Of a DNA stretch of 32,000 nt, positions 14,582 through 30,819 are shown piece after piece; position 1 is the stretch's first letter; each line of letters opens with the position of its first letter. The notes below the pieces were generated by a model. It saw nothing but the letters and a program-made list of their open reading frames with translations. It was not told the DNA's origin and ran no database searches. The DNA comes from an uncultured bacterium (lineage in GTDB: Bacteria > Auribacterota > JACPWU01): positions 1 to 32,000 of the forward strand of contig CAZXEQ010000005.1 in NCBI GenBank assembly GCA_964640155.1, read 5' to 3'. Both the position numbers and the translations under genes were made by a program.

Positions 14582-14640
14582 TTTAAAATTTCTCTATGTT
14601 TTATAATGATCATGTCATCAAAATCTACTTTTTCATAGAT

Positions 14641-14821
14641 GAGGGTGGCACAAATCCTGGGCCCCTTTCCCGCAAGGTCCTATGCGGACGAAGGCAAAGG
14701 ACTCCCGATTTTATACCCCTTTAAACCTTTTCTTACAAACACATCAGGAGAATGCTCAAGTCACGGGCGCTGGAACCGCAGGACCTGAGGACAAAGGGGT
14801 AAGATTTGTGACAGGACCCTC
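14641..14821. ncRNA. Candidate structured RNA A: 181-nt rod-like element
   Basis: About 34 Watson-Crick pairs join 14641-14687 to 14776-14821: 6 bp, 8 bp, 7 bp, 2 bp, then 11 bp (7+4 around a 2-nt bulge). A C/U-rich, poorly paired apical segment of about 56 nt lies at 14708-14763. GC is 53% by hand count. The strand is not resolvable because there are no G-U pairs. Confidence 0.45.
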
Positions 14822-14859
14822 TACTTTTGAATAAGAACACCCTTTGATCAATAGCATCC

Positions 14860-16311
14860 TTAATGATGATGCAAAACTTTATAAATTTTATCAGCAAGTT
14901 TTCTGGAAATGCCTGTTGCCTTTTGCAACTCATCCATAGATGCTTTCTTCATCTCTCCGATAGAACCAAAATGCTTTAGCAATTCTGCTCTTTTTACAAG
15001 ACCAACTCCAGATATATCATCTAAAATAGATTCTTTTAATTTCTTTTCTCTAAGAATTTTGTGATAGGTTACAGCAAAACGATGTGCTTCGTCCCGAATT
15101 CTTTGAATCAAATGCAGAGCGCCAGAATCTTTAGCCAATCGAAGAGGTTCATTAGAAAAAGGTCGATAAATTTCCTCATAACGTTTAGCCAAGCCAATCA
15201 CAGGAAGCGCTGTTAAACCCATTTCTTGCAAAACACTAAAAGCTGAAGAAAGTTGCCCCTTGCCCCCATCAATCAAAATCAAATCAGGGAAAACACCTCC
15301 CTCTTCTTTTAAGCCTCGATAACGCCTCCCCACCACCTCCTTCATCATGGCAAAATCATCAATGCCCAAAACACTTTTGATACGAAAACGTCTATAAAAC
15401 CGCTTATCGGGGGCACCTTGAAAAAAATGTACCATGGAACCTACAGCCTCTTTTCCAGAAAAATTAGAAATATCAAAAGCTTCCATTCGAATAGGCGGAT
15501 TTTCTAGGCCCAGAACCTCTGCCAGAGACTGCATCTCTTGCACAGCATGAGACGAGATCCTTTTAAAATTACGTAAAGTATTCATCCGAGTTCCTGCAAT
15601 ATTTTCAATCGCCCTCATCCGGTCTCTGAGTTGAGCTGCCTTTTCAAAATCTAAATTCTTAGAGGCTTCTTCTATTTGCTTTTTCATCTTAAAAACAAGC
15701 TCTTGAGATCGACCTAATAAAACTTGGCAAGCATGGTCAACAGATTGTCGATAATCCTCTTTTGAGATATTTCCCACACAAGGAGCTGAACACCATTTCA
15801 TCATTTGATAAAGACAATGGTCATAATCAGGTTTTCTAGGATCGACTAAATTACATGTTCTAATCTTAAAAATTTTTTGAAGTTGTTCCACTGTTTTTCG
15901 AAGTGCTTGTGAGTTGGTATAGGGCCCCAGGTATAATGCCCCATCGGGTTTTTTCGTTCGGGTGATCATAAACCGAGGAAAAGATTCGTTGAATGTCACT
16001 TTAAGTAAAGGATAAGTTTTATCATCTCTATAAGAGACATTGTACTTTGGTTTAAATTCCTTGATATATTGACATTCTAAAATCAAAGCTTCTTGAGGAG
16101 ATTTGAGTACAATAAAATCAATGTCTCGAACGGCCTCAATCATAGCTTCTGATTTTGGAGAGCCTTTTAAATCTCGAAAATGAGATAATAGCCTTGAGCG
16201 CAATCGAACCGCTTTACCTACATAAATAACCTCCCCTAACTCATTACGCATGAGGTAAATCCCACATTTTTGAGGAATTTTATGTATTTTTTCTTTCAGT
16301 TCCAATCGCAT
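14860..16311 (-). CDS. uvrC: Excinuclease ABC subunit C (compact form)
   Basis: GIY-YIG N-terminus (GIYLMRN..GEVIYVGKA), UVR motif (FEKAAQLRDRMRAIENI), endonuclease domain (LILIDGGKGQL) and C-terminal (HhH)2. It is only 483 aa. Confidence 0.9.
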   Translation of the reverse strand: MRLELKEKIHKIPQKCGIYLMRNELGEVIYVGKAVRLRSRLLSHFRDLKGSPKSEAMIEAVRDIDFIVLKSPQEALILECQYIKEFKPKYNVSYRDDKTYPLLKVTFNESFPRFMITRTKKPDGALYLGPYTNSQALRKTVEQLQKIFKIRTCNLVDPRKPDYDHCLYQMMKWCSAPCVGNISKEDYRQSVDHACQVLLGRSQELVFKMKKQIEEASKNLDFEKAAQLRDRMRAIENIAGTRMNTLRNFKRISSHAVQEMQSLAEVLGLENPPIRMEAFDISNFSGKEAVGSMVHFFQGAPDKRFYRRFRIKSVLGIDDFAMMKEVVGRRYRGLKEEGGVFPDLILIDGGKGQLSSAFSVLQEMGLTALPVIGLAKRYEEIYRPFSNEPLRLAKDSGALHLIQRIRDEAHRFAVTYHKILREKKLKESILDDISGVGLVKRAELLKHFGSIGEMKKASMDELQKATGISRKLADKIYKVLHHH

Positions 16312-16321
16312 GTATAAACCC

Positions 16322-16350
16322 TTGACATCTTTAAAGGTAAATTCTATATT
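16322..16350 (+). promoter_or_regulatory. Sigma70-type promoter for rpsT (TTGACA-17 nt-TATATT)
   Basis: Perfect -35 TTGACA at 16322-16327, an exact 17-nt spacer, and TATATT at 16345-16350. AAAGGA SD at 16385-16390 precedes the ATG at 16396. Confidence 0.65.
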
Positions 16351-16395
16351 TATCGCCTAATTTGCTTATTATATCAAGATTTTGAAAGGAATTTT

Positions 16396-16665
16396 ATGGC
16401 ACATAGTATTTCAGCACTTAAGAGAGCTCGACAAGCGTTAAAAAGACGAGCCAAAAATAAAACCAATAAGTCTAATCTTAAAGGCCAAACGAAGATCTTC
16501 TTAAACATTTTATCCTCCAAAAAGAAGGATGAAGCGGTTGCGGCTTTTAAAGAACTCTCAAGTCAATATGACAAAGCTGCTAAAAAGGGCATTGTCCATC
16601 GCCGTAACGCAGATCGTCATAAGTCTCGCTTAGCTCAGAGACTCGCGAAAGCTTTTGCTGCCTAA
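16396..16665 (+). CDS. rpsT: 30S ribosomal protein S20
   Basis: 89-aa highly basic protein beginning AHSISALKRARQALKRR. Size and composition are typical of bS20. Confidence 0.92.
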   Translation: MAHSISALKRARQALKRRAKNKTNKSNLKGQTKIFLNILSSKKKDEAVAAFKELSSQYDKAAKKGIVHRRNADRHKSRLAQRLAKAFAA

Positions 16666-19600
16666 AAAGACTCTTTTCATCCTTGTAGGTGGTTATTTCT
16701 TCTCCGGAGCTTGTGCCCTTGTTAGTGAGATTGTTTGGGCACGGCAAATCCAAATTTTTCTGGGATCTAGTACTCTTTCAGTTTCTGCCATACTCATCAC
16801 ATTTATGAGTGGCATTACTTTAGGGAGTTATTCTTTAGGACGCTCTCTAAAATCTTCCAAACACCCTCTTCTTCTCTATTGTTTTCTTGAAGCAGGCATT
16901 GGCCTTTTAACTCTTTTTCTCTTATGGTTTTACCCCTTTCTTCTTTCATCCCTTCATTTAAGTACCATTTGGCGTTATTTTCTAACGATCATTCTCTTTA
17001 GCATCCCTACTTTTCTCATGGGAGGAACTTTCCCTATTTTGAATGAAGTCTGCAAAAAACTTTCTGCAACTGAAAAAAACTGGCCCGCTATTCTTTATGG
17101 ATACAATGTTTTAGGAGGAACCCTCGGCGCTTTGATGGGTGGATTCTTTTTGATCTATCATCTTGGACTAAAACATACGCTTATACTAACCAGCTCTATT
17201 AATTTATCTATTGCATGTGTTTCAGCACTTATTTATAAAAAAGCATCAAACGCCTCCCCTCATATTGAAACTTTTTATAAGAGTAATCCTTCTCAAAAAC
17301 TTCAGCCTAATGTAGGGATGTTTTGTCTTTTCATCGTTGGCTTTATTTCCATGATGTATGAAGTTTTAACAACACGTCTTTTGGCCATTGTTCTGGGGAG
17401 TTCAACCTATGCCTTCACTCTCATTCTGACCACATTCCTACTGGGACTTGCTCTTGGAAATTTTTTACTCTCAAAGATAAGCCAGAGAACCTCTTATCCT
17501 TTGCTCTGGCTTATGGGATTACAAGTTATTCTTGGATTTTTTATTCTGACCAGTCTGTGTCTTCAAGATCAATTGCCCCTTTTCTTTTATAAACTTTTTC
17601 CAATATTTGAAAATTCATTCTGGAGCATTCAAGGGCTTCAATTCCTGATCTGTACTTTAATTCTTTTAGTGCCTACCAACCTTATTGGAGCTTCATTCCC
17701 ATTTTTAATTCGAATAGGGCAAAGCACCGTTACAGACAAATATAATTCTTTAGGGACACTGTATGCTATCAATTCCCTAGGAAATACGTTTGGAGCTCTT
17801 CTCACATCTCTTATTTTACTACCCTTCTATGGCCTAGAAAAAACTTTCAAAGTAAATGCTTTTATTTCTATTGCATTAGCAGCTCTTCTCTCTTTTTATT
17901 TGCCCTATAAAAAATCAACGCGCATTATGTTGATGTCTGGGATTTTAACAATAAGTCTTTTGCTTTTTAAAATTCCTCATCTGGATCTTAAACTTTTGAC
18001 TTCGGGGATTTCACTCTCTTCAAAAAATTATCATACCTTGGGGCTCTCACCCGATCGCTTCATTAAAGAAATAGCGCCTGTCAAAATTCTTTTTTCAAAA
18101 GATGGTTGGACCAGTCATGTAACCGTAAGAAAACATAAAAAAGTTCAAAGTCTTCTGATTAATGGAAAGGTTGAAGGCTCCAATGGACAAGATCTTCAAA
18201 CAGAACTTTTGGTTGCCCATTTACCTTTGCTATTACATTCTCAAACCGAGAATGTTTTTGTCATTGGCCTGGGGACAGGGATTACTTTAAGAGCCATTGA
18301 AACATATCCTGTAAAAACGATCACTTGCGTTGAAATTGAAAAAAGAGTTCTGGAGGCCAGTCAGCTTTTCAAAAAACATCATCACAATGCTCTCTCAGAT
18401 CCCAGACTTAAACTTATGGTAGAAGATGCTCGCCATGTTCTTTCCTCTTCTTCAGAAAAATATGACTGTATTATTTCTGAACCTTCTAATCCCTGGATGG
18501 CTGGGATTGGCTCTCTCTACACCATTGAAATGTTTCAAGAAATTAAAAATCATCTTAATGAGAAAGGCGTCGTTTGCCAATGGGTTCATTACTACAACAT
18601 GTCTCCAAACGATTTAAAAACCATTGTGAGAACTTTTCAAACTGTTTTTCCAAATAGTTCTCTATGGGGACAAGCCCATTTAAGTGATCTTTTTTTAATT
18701 GGGTTTAAAGATCCTGATCAAAAATTTCAAATTCCAAATTTGAACCTTAGCAATCCTAAGACTCGTAAAGATCTTCATTCCATTGGTCTTTCCAATACTA
18801 AAATTCTTCAAGCTTTACAATATTTAGACAAAGAAGAACTGGCAGCTTTTGCAGGGCAAGGAAAACTTCACACAGATGATCTTCCGATTCTAGAATTTTC
18901 TGCACCTCAAGCTCTTTACCAAGACACCCTTTCATTAAATTTAAAAGAAATCTTAAAATTCAGAAAAAATCGAATTTTAAAACATGAAAAAGCCATGACT
19001 TTTTATCTCCAAGCTATGGAAAACTTTTATAATAAAAATGAACAAAAATATTTTGAAAATCTTTCAATGGCATTTCAAAAATCTCCTAAATGGCAAAGTC
19101 TTTATCAACTCTATGAAAATGCTGTTTATAAAGAAACTCAGCGCTTGTTTGAGGATAAAAAAGAAAGAGAAGCCCTTGATTTACTTGAAAAAGCGCTCCC
19201 CTTTATTTCAAAATCATCTCGCATTCAATACACCTTAGGATTTCTCTATCAACAAAAGGAAGCGTGGGAAAAAGCAAAAGCCTGCTATCAAAAAACTGTA
19301 AAAATAAATCCACGGTTTGCTCAAGCTTATAATAATCTTGGAGCGGTTTATCTTCAATTTGAAGAAAATGATTTAGCCTATCAATCTTTTAAAAAAGCCC
19401 TTGAATTAGATCCCTTCTATATTGAAGCCCATCTTAATTTGGGCTATTGCCTCCTTCAGCAAAAAGCTTTGGAAGCAGCTGAATTAGAATTTAAACTCTG
19501 CATCGGTTTGAACAGTCAACTTGCCTCTGCTTATAACGGACTCGGTGTCGTTTTAGCCATGCAGAAAAAATTTGATCAAGCGACAGAACAATTCAAAGAA

Positions 19601-19675
19601 GCATTAGAACTAGAACCTCAAAACTCAGAAGCAAAGCGTAATTTAGAGAAAATGGCTCAAAAACTAAATGATTGA
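16655..19675 (+). CDS. Fused polytopic membrane domain / spermidine-synthase-like methyltransferase fold / C-terminal TPR protein
   Basis: 1006 aa. About 12 predicted TM segments are followed by a VFVIGLGTGIT..DCIISEPSNPW aminopropyltransferase-like core and TPR repeats (AYNNLGAVY, AHLNLGYC, AYNGLGVV). TTG start overlaps the rpsT end by 11 nt. Confidence 0.8.
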   Translation: MLPKKTLFILVGGYFFSGACALVSEIVWARQIQIFLGSSTLSVSAILITFMSGITLGSYSLGRSLKSSKHPLLLYCFLEAGIGLLTLFLLWFYPFLLSSLHLSTIWRYFLTIILFSIPTFLMGGTFPILNEVCKKLSATEKNWPAILYGYNVLGGTLGALMGGFFLIYHLGLKHTLILTSSINLSIACVSALIYKKASNASPHIETFYKSNPSQKLQPNVGMFCLFIVGFISMMYEVLTTRLLAIVLGSSTYAFTLILTTFLLGLALGNFLLSKISQRTSYPLLWLMGLQVILGFFILTSLCLQDQLPLFFYKLFPIFENSFWSIQGLQFLICTLILLVPTNLIGASFPFLIRIGQSTVTDKYNSLGTLYAINSLGNTFGALLTSLILLPFYGLEKTFKVNAFISIALAALLSFYLPYKKSTRIMLMSGILTISLLLFKIPHLDLKLLTSGISLSSKNYHTLGLSPDRFIKEIAPVKILFSKDGWTSHVTVRKHKKVQSLLINGKVEGSNGQDLQTELLVAHLPLLLHSQTENVFVIGLGTGITLRAIETYPVKTITCVEIEKRVLEASQLFKKHHHNALSDPRLKLMVEDARHVLSSSSEKYDCIISEPSNPWMAGIGSLYTIEMFQEIKNHLNEKGVVCQWVHYYNMSPNDLKTIVRTFQTVFPNSSLWGQAHLSDLFLIGFKDPDQKFQIPNLNLSNPKTRKDLHSIGLSNTKILQALQYLDKEELAAFAGQGKLHTDDLPILEFSAPQALYQDTLSLNLKEILKFRKNRILKHEKAMTFYLQAMENFYNKNEQKYFENLSMAFQKSPKWQSLYQLYENAVYKETQRLFEDKKEREALDLLEKALPFISKSSRIQYTLGFLYQQKEAWEKAKACYQKTVKINPRFAQAYNNLGAVYLQFEENDLAYQSFKKALELDPFYIEAHLNLGYCLLQQKALEAAELEFKLCIGLNSQLASAYNGLGVVLAMQKKFDQATEQFKEALELEPQNSEAKRNLEKMAQKLND

Positions 19676-19691
19676 AACACTCTTATGATGA

Positions 19692-19844
19692 AAAACCTCT
19701 CAAAAAGGTGCCAAACATGTCCTTATAGTCCCCGTAAGGGGATGCAAGGCATCCACAAGCGACTGCGGAGGCGTACGTTTAATGGTACGCCGCACAAAGA
19801 AGCGCAGTGGGTAACGCAGCAGATGGACCTTTTTCAGAGGTTTT
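19692..19844 (+). ncRNA. Candidate structured RNA B: 153-nt multi-helix element 16 nt downstream of the preceding stop codon
   Basis: An 18-position closing stem (17 WC pairs) joins 19692-19709 to 19827-19844. It encloses a core that is 56% GC by hand count. Core hairpins: 19729-19742 (GUAA loop), 19740-19754, 19770-19791, and 19762-19767 paired with 19803-19808. UUUU follows the 3' arm. Strand is assigned from context only. Confidence 0.5.
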
Positions 19845-19876
19845 AATTAATTTGGGATTAAAAACAGACAAAATCT

Positions 19877-19885
19877 TGTTATAGT
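19877..19885 (+). promoter_or_regulatory. Candidate extended -10 promoter for htpX (TGTTATAGT)
   Basis: TGnTATAGT at 19877-19885, about 30 nt upstream of the ATG. AGAGGAG SD at 19901-19907. Confidence 0.35.
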
Positions 19886-19915
19886 GTTAGACATGAATTT
19901 AGAGGAGAAAACACC

Positions 19916-20764
19916 ATGAATGTGACAAAAACAACTTTATTAATGGCTCTTTTAACCGTTCTTTTTGTTTTTGCAGGAGGCGCCGTAGGTGGCCAGCAAG
20001 GGATGGTTTTTGCTTTTCTATTCGCATGTGTCATGAATGTTGTGACCTATTGGTTTTCTCATAAAATTGTTTTGGCCTTGTATCGAGCCAAACCTCTTTC
20101 AGAAAAAGAAGCACCTGAAGTATATGCCATTGTAAGGGATTTAGCGCTTAAAGCTAATATCCCTATGCCTCAACTTTATCTCATTCCTCAAGAAGCACCT
20201 AACGCCTTTGCAACGGGAAGAAACCCAAAGCATGCAGTCGTTGCAGTCACACACGGCATTTTGAATCTCTTAAACAAAGAGGAATTGCGTGGAGTTCTTG
20301 CGCATGAACTTTCTCATGTTAACAATCGTGACATTCTTGTTGGGACTATTGCTGCCACAATTGCAGGAGCCATCAGTATGCTTGCCAATATGGCCCGTTG
20401 GGGAATGATGTTTGGAGGCGGACATCGTGATAACGATCGAAATAATCCTCTGGGCGGTATTCTTGCCATTGTTGTTCTCATTTTTCTACCTATTGCCGCC
20501 ATGCTTATTCAATTGGCTATTTCCAGAACACGTGAATATGGAGCAGATGAAACCGGAGCAAGATTAACAGGTAATCCTTTAAGTTTAGCGAATGCTCTAA
20601 GAAAGTTACAATCTTACTCTCAACGAATTCCCATGCAAGCCAATCCAGCAACTGCTCATATGTTTATCGTCAATCCTCTCAGTGGCAAAAGTTTATTAAA
20701 ACTTTTTAGCACCCATCCACCCTTGGAAGATCGAATTGCACGTTTGGAACAAATGGCACGGTAA
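19916..20764 (+). CDS. htpX: Zinc metalloprotease HtpX (M48 family)
   Basis: 282 aa with an N-terminal TM pair, a HELSH zinc motif, and conserved REYGADE and [10 protein letters not shown] motifs. Confidence 0.92.
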
Positions 20765-21786: not shown

Positions 21787-21848
21787 GTGTTTATTATACT
21801 CTTTTTTTAAAAAACTCCAGATAAGAATTTAATTTTAATCACGATAAC

Positions 21849-21987
21849 ATCGGTGAATAGAGCGTGAAGACCATTGGAGCTCGAGCGAGCATGGAACCCC
21901 GATAAATATCGGGGGAAGCGAGAGCTCCTTTGAGTTCGTTTACCTCGCCGGGGGAAACGAACGTGTCTGAATACTCTATTCACCGAT
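21849..21987 (-). ncRNA. Candidate structured RNA C: 139-nt three-way-junction element
   Basis: A perfect 14-bp closing stem joins 21849-21862 to 21974-21987, extended by AGAC/GUCU (21868-71 with 21965-68). Stem 21876-21882 pairs with 21922-21928 and is capped by the hairpin CCCCGAU-AAAU-AUCGGGG (21897-21914). A separate 8-bp hairpin spans 21934-21962. GC is 52% by hand count. Strand is assigned from flanking gene orientation only. Confidence 0.5.
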
Positions 21988-22005
21988 ATCTATGTAGAAA
22001 ATAGT

Positions 22006-28491: not shown

Positions 28492-30699
28492 TTAACGATC
28501 TGAGACCGAACTCATTTTAAAAGATTTCCCATCACATTCTAAGACAAAAGAACACGCCCTTTCCCCTTCAAAAAGAGAGATTCTCCTTGCTTTAATTTCT
28601 TCACTCAAATACTTTTGAAAACCTTCTTTAAGAAAAACTGCTTTTATCTTTTGATGATCCATCCATTTTAAAAACGCTTCAACATCAACCTTATCTTCAA
28701 TAAAAACAACTCCTTCACCTTGCATCTTTTCCATTCTTAATTTTTCAAAAGTTCCCGCACGAAACCAAATCATCCATTGATCTTGATAATAAAGTTTTTC
28801 TAGCTCCCCTTCCGGAGAAATTTCAACTTTTATATTTTCCATCAAAGAAAGAGGTAAAGAATCTAAAGTTTGAGACTTTACGATCTGGAAAACACTGGTC
28901 TTTAAACTAGATTCTGTTTTAGGGATAAAAAGATGATTAATTTCTTTTACTTTTAATAAGAATAGAAGTTGATGAAGCCAAGGCTCTTCAATAGAAGTCG
29001 TATCAATACCGTTAAGCCAAAGAGAATATTTTTTATTCCATTCCATCATTTGTATATTTACTTGGCCTCGAGAAAAAGAAGAAAGCTTTAAAATATTTTC
29101 ATGACGAGCAGGAAATAGAAATACAACCAGGCTCAAAGCTATCAGCCAAAAATAAGATGTTTTGATTTTTTGAGTCCCTTTCCATAACCCTAAGAAAAGA
29201 ATGGCATAAAAAGAAATCATCCATAGCCAAGAAGGTCGATTAATAAAAAAATAAGCCCCTGGAAATTTTGAGAATAAATCCATGCTAGATACTAAAAAAC
29301 TCAAAAAAACCTCATTCATCATATTCAAAGGAACAGCAACAAAATCAGAAAAACCTAAAAGACCCACCACAAAACCTACATTCATGACAATGCCGACCAA
29401 AGGAACCGCTAATAAATTAGCTAAAATTGTTATAGGAGAAAAAACATGAAAGTGATAAGCGATCAAAGGGAAAACACCTATCCAAACGGCTAAAGAACTA
29501 CTAAGTGTCTTGATGATCCATTGCATCATTTTTTCAAAAAGACGCTCTCTTTTATCTAGAAGAGGGAAAAATCGTTGAGGTATTTTCTGAAGAAAAATCA
29601 AATCTTTTTCAAGAATGGGTGTTAGAAAAATTAACGCCAGCAGGCAAAGAAAAGACAATTGAAACCCAGGATCAAATAGACTTAAAGGATTATAAAGCAA
29701 CATTCCCAAAGCAGATCCTCCTAAAGCGTTGCTTAAATTACTTTTTCTTTTCAGAATTCGTCCGATGAGAAAAAATGTGGCCATAATCGCTGAGCGCAAA
29801 ATAGGAGGAGCCAAACCTGTCATAAAAGAATAAATCCAAATAGACAGAAGAGCCAAAATATAAACCCCTGTTTTAGGAAAAGAAAACAAACCTAGAACAA
29901 ATAAAATACACAGTAGTATCACTGTCAAATGAAGCCCTGAAATTGACAAAATATGAATGGTCCCGGTGTAGAGAAAAGAACTTTTTAGTTCAGGGCTAAC
30001 ATTTTCTCTGGACCCAACAATCATCGCTTGTAATAAAGGTAAAACCGTTGAATCCCTTGAAATTCCTTTCTCAAGATTATGATTTGTAAATTGCCTGAAT
30101 TGTTCAATCCTCTTTTCAAAAGAAATTTGATCACTCTGCAAGAGATGAATAGATTTAGCACTTGATACTTTTACTACTAAAACAACTCCCTGACTTTTCA
30201 GCCAAACAGGAAAACCTTCTTCATGACTGAAATTACTGAAAGGCCTTTGAAGAATCTTTCCTTCGAGTTCTATTTTGTCAAAGCGATTGAGTAAACAGTT
30301 CTCTCCCCCTTTCACAAGTACTTTCCCATTTGCAGAAAACCAGCGGTGATCTTCATGAGTAGAGTGAACATCTACGATGATTTGTTTAAGCCCAGAAATC
30401 TGAACAAAATCTACAATTTCTCCCTGAATTTGAATAAATGTTTTAGCTTTGGACAGTTGATCGATACGATCAGAGGAAGGAAAATAAATCTTAAAATCAT
30501 AAAGAAAAATTCCGACTAAAAAACATACACTTAAAAGACAAATATTTGAGATTTTCTGATTTTTTAAAAAAGGGAAAATAATTAAGAGCACAAAACCTAA
30601 AATCCATAGTCCAACGGTTAAACTAAAAGGAAGAAAAGAAGCTGTAAAAATTCCGACGGCAAGAGAAATAGAGAGAACAAGAAGAGGTTGTTTTGTCAT
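28492..30699 (-). CDS. comEC: DNA internalization competence protein ComEC/Rec2 family
   Basis: 735 aa with an N-terminal DUF4131/OB-like region and a polytopic competence domain (GTIHILSISGLHLT, FQLSFL). The C-terminal ~200 aa lack HxHxDH. Confidence 0.85.
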   Translation of the reverse strand: MTKQPLLVLSISLAVGIFTASFLPFSLTVGLWILGFVLLIIFPFLKNQKISNICLLSVCFLVGIFLYDFKIYFPSSDRIDQLSKAKTFIQIQGEIVDFVQISGLKQIIVDVHSTHEDHRWFSANGKVLVKGGENCLLNRFDKIELEGKILQRPFSNFSHEEGFPVWLKSQGVVLVVKVSSAKSIHLLQSDQISFEKRIEQFRQFTNHNLEKGISRDSTVLPLLQAMIVGSRENVSPELKSSFLYTGTIHILSISGLHLTVILLCILFVLGLFSFPKTGVYILALLSIWIYSFMTGLAPPILRSAIMATFFLIGRILKRKSNLSNALGGSALGMLLYNPLSLFDPGFQLSFLCLLALIFLTPILEKDLIFLQKIPQRFFPLLDKRERLFEKMMQWIIKTLSSSLAVWIGVFPLIAYHFHVFSPITILANLLAVPLVGIVMNVGFVVGLLGFSDFVAVPLNMMNEVFLSFLVSSMDLFSKFPGAYFFINRPSWLWMISFYAILFLGLWKGTQKIKTSYFWLIALSLVVFLFPARHENILKLSSFSRGQVNIQMMEWNKKYSLWLNGIDTTSIEEPWLHQLLFLLKVKEINHLFIPKTESSLKTSVFQIVKSQTLDSLPLSLMENIKVEISPEGELEKLYYQDQWMIWFRAGTFEKLRMEKMQGEGVVFIEDKVDVEAFLKWMDHQKIKAVFLKEGFQKYLSEEIKARRISLFEGERACSFVLECDGKSFKMSSVSDR

Positions 30700-30704
30700 A
30701 AATA

Positions 30705-30792
30705 CGGGTGACGCTCGACGGGGCGCCCTACCGAGCGCAACTTTTGCTGAGCACGGTGATGGTCCCGATGTGACATCGGGGGACCCGCCACC
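30705..30792 (-). ncRNA. Candidate structured RNA D: 88-nt GC-rich leader/intercistronic element abutting the comEC start codon
   Basis: 68% GC by hand count. Hairpin 30712-30717/30732-30737 carries a GGGCGCCC palindrome in its loop. Hairpin 30755-30792 contains CCCGAUG-UGA-CAUCGGG. An alternative closing pairing joins 30705-09 to 30783-87. The element ends 5 nt before the comEC ATG, which has no SD. Confidence 0.5.
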
Positions 30793-30819
30793 TTATCAGA
30801 AAATATACTTCTATGCATG

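Follow-up and report, generated by a model that had tools for sequence, protein, structure and literature searches.

A GC-rich hairpin element of narrow distribution between a spermidine-synthase-like/TPR gene and htpX in uncultured Chlamydiota: a candidate 3'UTR terminator and insulator

The htpX locus in the window and its relatives

The window (the whole stretch of DNA that was analysed, 32 kb) encodes on its plus strand a spermidine-synthase-like membrane protein with TPR repeats (16655-19675, 1006 aa), ending in a TGA stop codon at 19673-19675, and the M48 zinc metalloprotease HtpX (19916-20764), which is followed by a convergent patatin gene. Between the stop codon of the former gene and the promoter of the latter lies a GC-rich element of 153 nt (19692-19844), separated from the stop codon by 16 nt. 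The G+C content of the whole element is 50.3%, and that of the part enclosed by its closing arms (19710-19826) is 55.6%, compared with 37.5% for the window.

Homologues of this HtpX at 76-100% identity are found in uncultured Chlamydiota MAGs, and the species-representative genome collection gave only matches from other phyla at no more than 67% identity. Comparison of the htpX locus in nine lineages (the window, L082, L084, L085, L087, L088, L090, L091 and L101) indicates that the element is present only in the window and L082, the two closest among them (HtpX 91% identical, approximately 84% nucleotide identity overall), and is absent from the other seven, which have HtpX identities of 85% or less. 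The L082 copy is located at L082:5682-5806 (nhmmer E = 2e-26), and no additional close relatives came to light when the C-terminus of the upstream protein was used as a query. The gene upstream of htpX varies by lineage, being the TPR gene in some and rpsT in others.

Three of the lineages that lack the element possess unrelated long-stem hairpins with a U run directly upstream of the conserved htpX motif (L084, ~75 nt; L087, ~57 nt; L101, ~100 nt), and no strong hairpin is found at that spot in L085, L088, L090 or L091. What recurs at the site is a strong hairpin and U run before the htpX promoter, with fast turnover of its sequence, and the window's version is the largest. The presence of unrelated hairpins in L084, L087 and L101 suggests that the function of the site persists although the sequence that performs it is replaced. 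Two further structured sequences were observed in L101: a match to group II intron domain V/VI just downstream of htpX (L101:10946-11013, Rfam, 56 bits) and an unassigned long hairpin of ~190 nt adjoining a tRNA gene (L101:1830-2030).

The htpX promoter region (19851-19885, plus strand) lies outside the element and consists, according to a promoter scan, of TTTGGGAT (19851-19858), a gap of 21 nt, and the extended -10 sequence TGTTATAGT (19877-19885). The corresponding motif, TTT(G/C)GGA(A/T), ~20 nt, TGTTAnAnT, is conserved in all nine lineages, approximately 64-86 nt before the htpX start codon, except in L082, where the distance is 187 nt because of a separate insertion of two hairpins in its 5'UTR. 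This insertion of ~125 nt (within L082:5850-5990), absent from the window, follows the htpX -10 box, precedes the ribosome-binding site and contains the hairpins ACTGACTGGGTCG..CGACCCAGTCAGT and ACTACAAGTCCG..CGGACTTGTTAGT, and therefore htpX of L082 has a long structured 5'UTR. TTGGGA and the -10 hexamer are 22 nt apart, a greater distance than a standard sigma-70 -35/-10 pair allows, and a palindrome (TGGGAATGAAATTCCCA) includes the motif in L084 and L101. The motif could serve as a promoter for an alternative sigma factor or as the site of a regulator; sigma-54, sigma-32 and ECF readings of TTTGGGAT were considered by eye only.

Since the motif is downstream of the element, the element is outside the htpX transcript and is not needed for the htpX promoter. 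The original prediction that the element is not the htpX 5'UTR is borne out by the presence of the downstream motif in nine lineages versus the element in two. A role in regulating htpX, either through transcription-factor sites in the DNA or as an attenuator or thermosensor of read-through, is very improbable. The element is placed 7-159 nt upstream of the promoter motif, contains the palindrome GGCGTAC-N8-GTACGCC and CGCAG repeats 12 nt apart, and has a conserved core sequence that would fit protein-binding sites, but seven of the nine lineages keep the motif and its spacing without the element, the Shine-Dalgarno sequence (19902-19907) and the start codon are 60-70 nt beyond the structure, no ligand-binding family is matched, and substitutions that preserve pairing as G-U (described below) point to RNA rather than duplex DNA. 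Nothing points to the control of htpX read-through that had been thought conceivable; the relatives keep the htpX promoter in the absence of the element.

Structure and constraint of the element

The letters of the sequence agree with the arms, the GC-rich core, the first three hairpins, the pentamers, the 16-nt gap and the terminal U4 of the original prediction. The closing arms (19692-19709, AAAACCTCTCAAAAAGGT, and 19827-19844, ACCTTTTTCAGAGGTTTT) are terminal inverted repeats of 18 nt, complementary at 17 of 18 positions. The A run of the 5' arm (AAAACCUCUCAAAAAGGU) pairs with the U run of the 3' arm (ACCUUUUUCAGAGGUUUU), which ends in U4 and is followed by AAUUAAUUU. A U-rich tract is present at the end of the closing stem, taken as 19840 (...CAGAGG), where the sequence continues as UUUUAAUUAAUUU. 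The arms enclose a hairpin-1 branch (19710-19742, with UCCCC-GUAA-GGGGA at 19729-19742), a hairpin 2 (GGATGC-AAG-GCATCC, 19740-19754), a hairpin 3 with an 8-nt loop (GGCGUAC-GUUUAAUG-GUACGCC, 19770-19791), and the pentamers CTGCG (19763-19767) and CGCAG (19803-19807 and 19815-19819). The three hairpins are all perfect in their letters.

The predicted folds of 19680-19850 are far more stable than those of shuffled sequences on both strands (plus strand, -63.5 kcal/mol, z = -5.2; minus strand, -64.5 kcal/mol, z = -7.3), with none of 200 shuffles as stable in either case, and the core without the closing stem has only a small advantage over its shuffles (z = -2.35, 5 of 200). The firmly predicted pairs of the ensemble are confined to the closing stem, hairpin 1 and hairpin 3 (probabilities at least 0.89-0.99): the pairs of the closing stem have probabilities of 0.89-1.0, apart from the outermost pair (0.52) and a C/C mismatch, those of hairpin 1 reach 0.99, and those of hairpin 3 are at least 0.99. 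Hairpin 2 is absent from the minimum-energy fold, which instead has a CCUU/AAGG extension of hairpin 1. The enclosing ACUGCG/CGCAGU helix that had been proposed as a fourth hairpin has a probability of only ~0.08, and the two CGCAG copies are assigned to different helices of the consensus fold described below. Enforced pairing of either CGCAG copy costs 0.5-2.7 kcal/mol relative to the optimum; alternative pairing would be possible by this modelling, without comparative signal behind it.

In L082, where the upstream stop codon (TAA) abuts the first A's of the closing stem with a gap of 0 nt, five nucleotides stand in place of 19710-19742, and with this net indel of 28 nt neither hairpin 1 nor the 5' half of hairpin 2 is present there. 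The RNAalifold consensus of the shared parts (124 columns) is one long irregular hairpin, built from base to tip of the 17-bp closing stem, UGC/GCA, AUCCAC (19750-19755)/GUGGGU (19808-19813), GC/GC, CU/AG, and hairpin 3, which is invariant between the window and L082; the conserved core (19743-19826) forms the upper part. The arrangement of four hairpins with a switch is disfavoured by this comparison, in which a single long irregular hairpin is preferred. The closing stem, the core and hairpin 3 are kept in L082, from which hairpin 1 is missing, and the element as a whole is missing from seven lineages.

The 124 shared columns contain six substitutions, of which five fall within four predicted pairs, all retaining the ability to pair on the plus strand, and the sixth falls in an internal loop. 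From the window to L082, the pairs change from C-G to G-U (by substitution on both sides), G-C to G-U, U-A to U-G, and, at 19752/19812, U.G to C-G. In the closing stem, C19696 is replaced by a G that still pairs (G-U), and the three substitutions of the 3' arm (A>G, C>U and G>U) keep their pairs as G-U on the plus strand only. The three new G-U pairs of L082 would be C/A mismatches on the minus strand, and in agreement with this its element folds better on the plus strand (-55.3 kcal/mol) than on the minus strand (-46.2 kcal/mol). The direction of every pair change points to a probable RNA on the plus strand, which is the strand of both flanking genes. With only two sequences the covariation statistics are weak, the observed score being reached in 256 of 500 shuffles.

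No known family accounts for the element. A scan of the whole window with Rfam at gathering thresholds gave no matches, in line with the original prediction, and a scan of 19600-19930 with E-values up to 10 gave noise, the best match being a eukaryotic snoRNA at 21 bits versus a threshold of 38. ARAGORN found no tRNA. A protein-coding reading of the 53-aa open reading frame at 19685-19846 was rejected: L082 has the 28-nt frame-breaking indel and no start codon, and the product has no Pfam match. Its HMMER matches among 1.84 billion representatives are only translations of tandem repeats and CRISPR arrays, chance matches inflated by repetition, and back-translation by hand located the identities between the open reading frame and CRISPR repeats at first and second codon positions only. 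The element was likewise rejected as a CRISPR repeat, being a single copy with no tandem array with spacers, and the resemblance at the protein level is weak and summed over repeats. A candidate promoter of its own (TATGAT box at 19682) was discarded because it is within the stretch deleted in L082.

The core (19743-19826) is identical at 82 of 84 positions (97.6%) in the window and L082, compared with 71% identity at third codon positions of eight flanking genes and 84.6% overall in an alignment of 12.6 kb (binomial P approximately 3e-10 and 1e-4, respectively). As many as 82 identities are found in only 45 of 12,280 windows of this length, which apart from the core are located in the patatin gene, in rpsT and in the rpsT promoter. 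The spacer of the divergent uvrC and rpsT promoters (16312-16396), which contains a near-consensus TTGACA-17-TATATT promoter, is 96.5% identical to that of L082 and equals the best coding stretches.

By this comparison the constraint on the core appears greater than the loop of a terminator would need, and it is the main ground for a different possibility, that the function resides in the 84-nt core, as part of a stable sRNA, trans-acting or protein-binding, which would be processed from the 3'UTR of the upstream mRNA and share its terminator. CpxQ is a 3'UTR-derived sRNA from cpxP. The element is similar to such sRNAs in its location in a 3'UTR, the lack of a conserved promoter of its own, its end at a terminator-like stem and its constrained interior, and by analogy with CpxQ its position beside an envelope-stress gene would also be suitable, as would selection on plus-strand structure. 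Unlike these sRNAs, the element has an extremely narrow phylogenetic range. The sRNA alternative is unlikely: with two carrier genomes, the constraint is inseparable from gene conversion or recent shared ancestry, identities of 90-96% are also seen in other alignable intergenic stretches of the window and L082, and the element, which belongs to no Rfam family, offers neither a target nor a seed region. Its size and long irregular hairpin also resemble 6S RNA and other rod-shaped regulatory RNAs, but, in contrast to 6S RNA, it has no Rfam match up to E 10, and a housekeeping RNA would not be missing, as the element is, from relatives at HtpX identities of 85% or less.

GC-rich islands and shared hairpin modules

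Non-coding sequence makes up ~2.0 kb of the 32-kb window (~6%), and more than one-quarter of it consists of GC-rich structured islands. Besides the element, there are three more non-coding GC-rich islands with long closing stems: I2 (~14641-14821), I4 (~21849-21983) and I5 (~30706-30795), for which Rfam scans by E-value gave only noise. I2 (~180 nt, within 14616-14858; closing stem GAGGGTGGCACAAATC / GATTTGTGACAGGACCCTC) separates two minus-strand genes, uvrC and one for a DsbH-like thioredoxin, and belongs to an intergenic region (14582-14859) with predicted folding energies of -72 kcal/mol (plus strand) and -80 kcal/mol (minus strand). It is absent from L082 and L085, in which the flanking genes are 13 nt apart. 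Its flanks, TTATAATGATCATG (14602-14615) and TTAATGATGATG (14859-14870), are duplicated TTATGATGATG-like sequences, single in L082, and this looks like a target-site duplication. I4 (in 21819-21994, structured at 21849-21983) has a 14-bp closing stem (ATCGGTGAATAGAG / CTCTATTCACCGAT), contains the hairpin CCCCGATAAATATCGGGGGA, and is situated between two minus-strand genes; it is absent from the orthologous spacer of L082, which is 46 nt long. I5 is directly upstream of a comEC-like gene (28492-30699, minus strand), with no obvious ribosome-binding site between the island and the annotated start. No U run directly follows the closing stem of any of the window's other islands, and termination therefore fails to explain these structures as a class. 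The window shows no excess of canonical small terminators either, with 15 and 11 found versus 14.1 and 11.5 in shuffles.

The islands have hairpins in common rather than overall sequence. The idea that the islands of the window are a single sequence family was rejected, as pairwise local alignments are not significant. I4 and I5 both carry the hairpin CCCGAT-N5-ATCGGGGGA, for which no matches are expected by chance. In L091 (GCA_016178005.1), a more distant relative, a 432-nt spacer (L091:4867-5298) contains two GC-rich stem-closed structures, neither of which reaches an Rfam gathering threshold; one has a perfect 24-bp closing stem (GTATTTAAAAGTGTGTCCTTTTA / TAAAAGGACACACTTTTAAATAC), and the other contains TTATAGTCCCCGTGGGAAAGGGGA, which matches the hairpin-1 module of the window. 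CAGCAGATGGA is likewise common to the spacer and the element. I5 and the L091 islands have stretches of 9-17 nt in common. The 20-nt hairpin-1 module (TTATAGTCCCCGT..AAGGGGA, 19723-19742) recurs in the otherwise unrelated island at L091:4994-5018 (local alignment z = 6.3, observed score 29 versus 23 for the best of 200 shuffles), and it is exactly the module that separates the window from L082. These shared modules suggest that the GC-rich structures may grow by gaining hairpins.

Much of this is what would be expected of an insertion-derived modular palindromic element, MITE-like or REP/ERIC-like, which colonises intergenic spacers and has terminator activity as a by-product. The element resembles ERIC/IRU, Correia/NEMIS and REP/BIME sequences, Rickettsia palindromic elements and the GC clusters of (yeast) mitochondria in being an imperfect palindrome of 125-153 nt within a transcribed spacer, bounded by terminal inverted repeats and polymorphic for its presence among close genomes, and in having a hairpin module gained or lost as a unit that is seen in another island. 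The absence of the element from relatives with HtpX identities of 85% or less, that of I2 and I4 from the L082 sites and of I2 also from L085, the duplicated target-like flanks of I2, and the hairpin shared by I4 and I5 are consistent with this origin. Unlike all of these families, however, the element is unrepeated in the sequence searched: there is no second copy in the 32-kb window (blastn and nhmmer), no further copy in 80 distant htpX loci or in ~85 kb of relatives' loci (L082-L092 and L101-L102), and none in viral contigs, searched with three patterns, or in collections of plasmids and phages. When metagenomes were scanned with one 18-mer of hairpin 3, the eight matches had nothing in common beyond the 18-mer, as expected by chance, and the intergenic regions of the window and the relatives examined yielded no dispersed repeats. 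The islands lack significant overall similarity to each other, and the flanks of the element have only a weak AT-rich resemblance (TAAATCAAT and TAAATTAAT in L082), with no convincing target-site duplication. Stem substitutions that keep plus-strand pairing, together with the constrained core, would indicate selection at the level of the host and not a decaying selfish element. An insertional origin of this kind is unlikely, to the same degree as the sRNA alternative.

A broader proposal is that the element, I2, I4, I5, the two L091 islands and one L101 island might constitute an undescribed class of modular GC-rich stem-closed elements that come and go in the very short spacers of a clade of environmental Chlamydiota, swap hairpin modules such as TTATAGTCCCCGT..AAGGGGA, and are retained because of what their RNA does, be it termination, processing or the action of a core in trans. 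This is doubtful, though slightly less so than either of the two preceding alternatives.

A putative terminator and insulator of the upstream gene

The best explanation at present, with a probability of about 45%, is that a hairpin of recent origin, confined to this lineage, brings about termination and insulation in the 3'UTR of the upstream gene. The element would be transcribed on the plus strand, in the 3'UTR of the spermidine-synthase-like/TPR gene; its ends would pair as a 17-bp stem with an A run on one side and a U run on the other; and its interior would stack into one irregular hairpin of ~125 nt tipped by hairpin 3, to which the window adds hairpin 1 as a side branch. Most likely it would act as an oversized intrinsic terminator and 3'-end protector, stopping or processing transcripts of the upstream gene, and would insulate htpX, a separately promoted stress gene. 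Its long double-stranded stem would be a plausible target of RNase III. The sequences indicate the structure, its strand, its place relative to the stop codon and the promoter, its restriction to the two closest of the nine lineages and the constraint on its core, and termination and insulation are functions that we infer; the original prediction of a terminator-like stem with a large structured interior agrees with the location of the element, right after the upstream stop codon and ending in a U run.

Compact intrinsic terminators have a G+C-rich hairpin with a stem of ~5-14 bp and a loop of ~3-10 nt. The element is similar to intrinsic terminators, particularly the long-stem forms with A and U tracts, in following a stop codon on the coding strand, in having a stem and then a U run, and in having an upstream A run that extends the stem. 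It differs from them in that the stem encloses 117 nt with several helices, far beyond canonical loops, that the base of the stem adjoining the U run is A/U-rich, and that it escapes a consensus terminator scan. A strong hairpin is, moreover, lacking at this spot in four of the nine lineages. A plain terminator would not need a conserved interior, and here the core is far more conserved than third codon positions (97.6% versus 71%); why the 84-nt interior is conserved is outside what the terminator model explains.

Searches of the literature yielded nothing specific to Chlamydiota on a trans-acting conserved core or on a mobile family of structured modules. If the element is indeed a terminator and insulator of the upstream gene, it would illustrate how such hairpins turn over, and grow by the gain of modules, in a very compact genome. 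This would be useful for the annotation of Chlamydiota MAGs and would not amount to a new principle. The finding would matter more if the core were a trans-acting RNA, or if the islands were a mobile family of structured modules.
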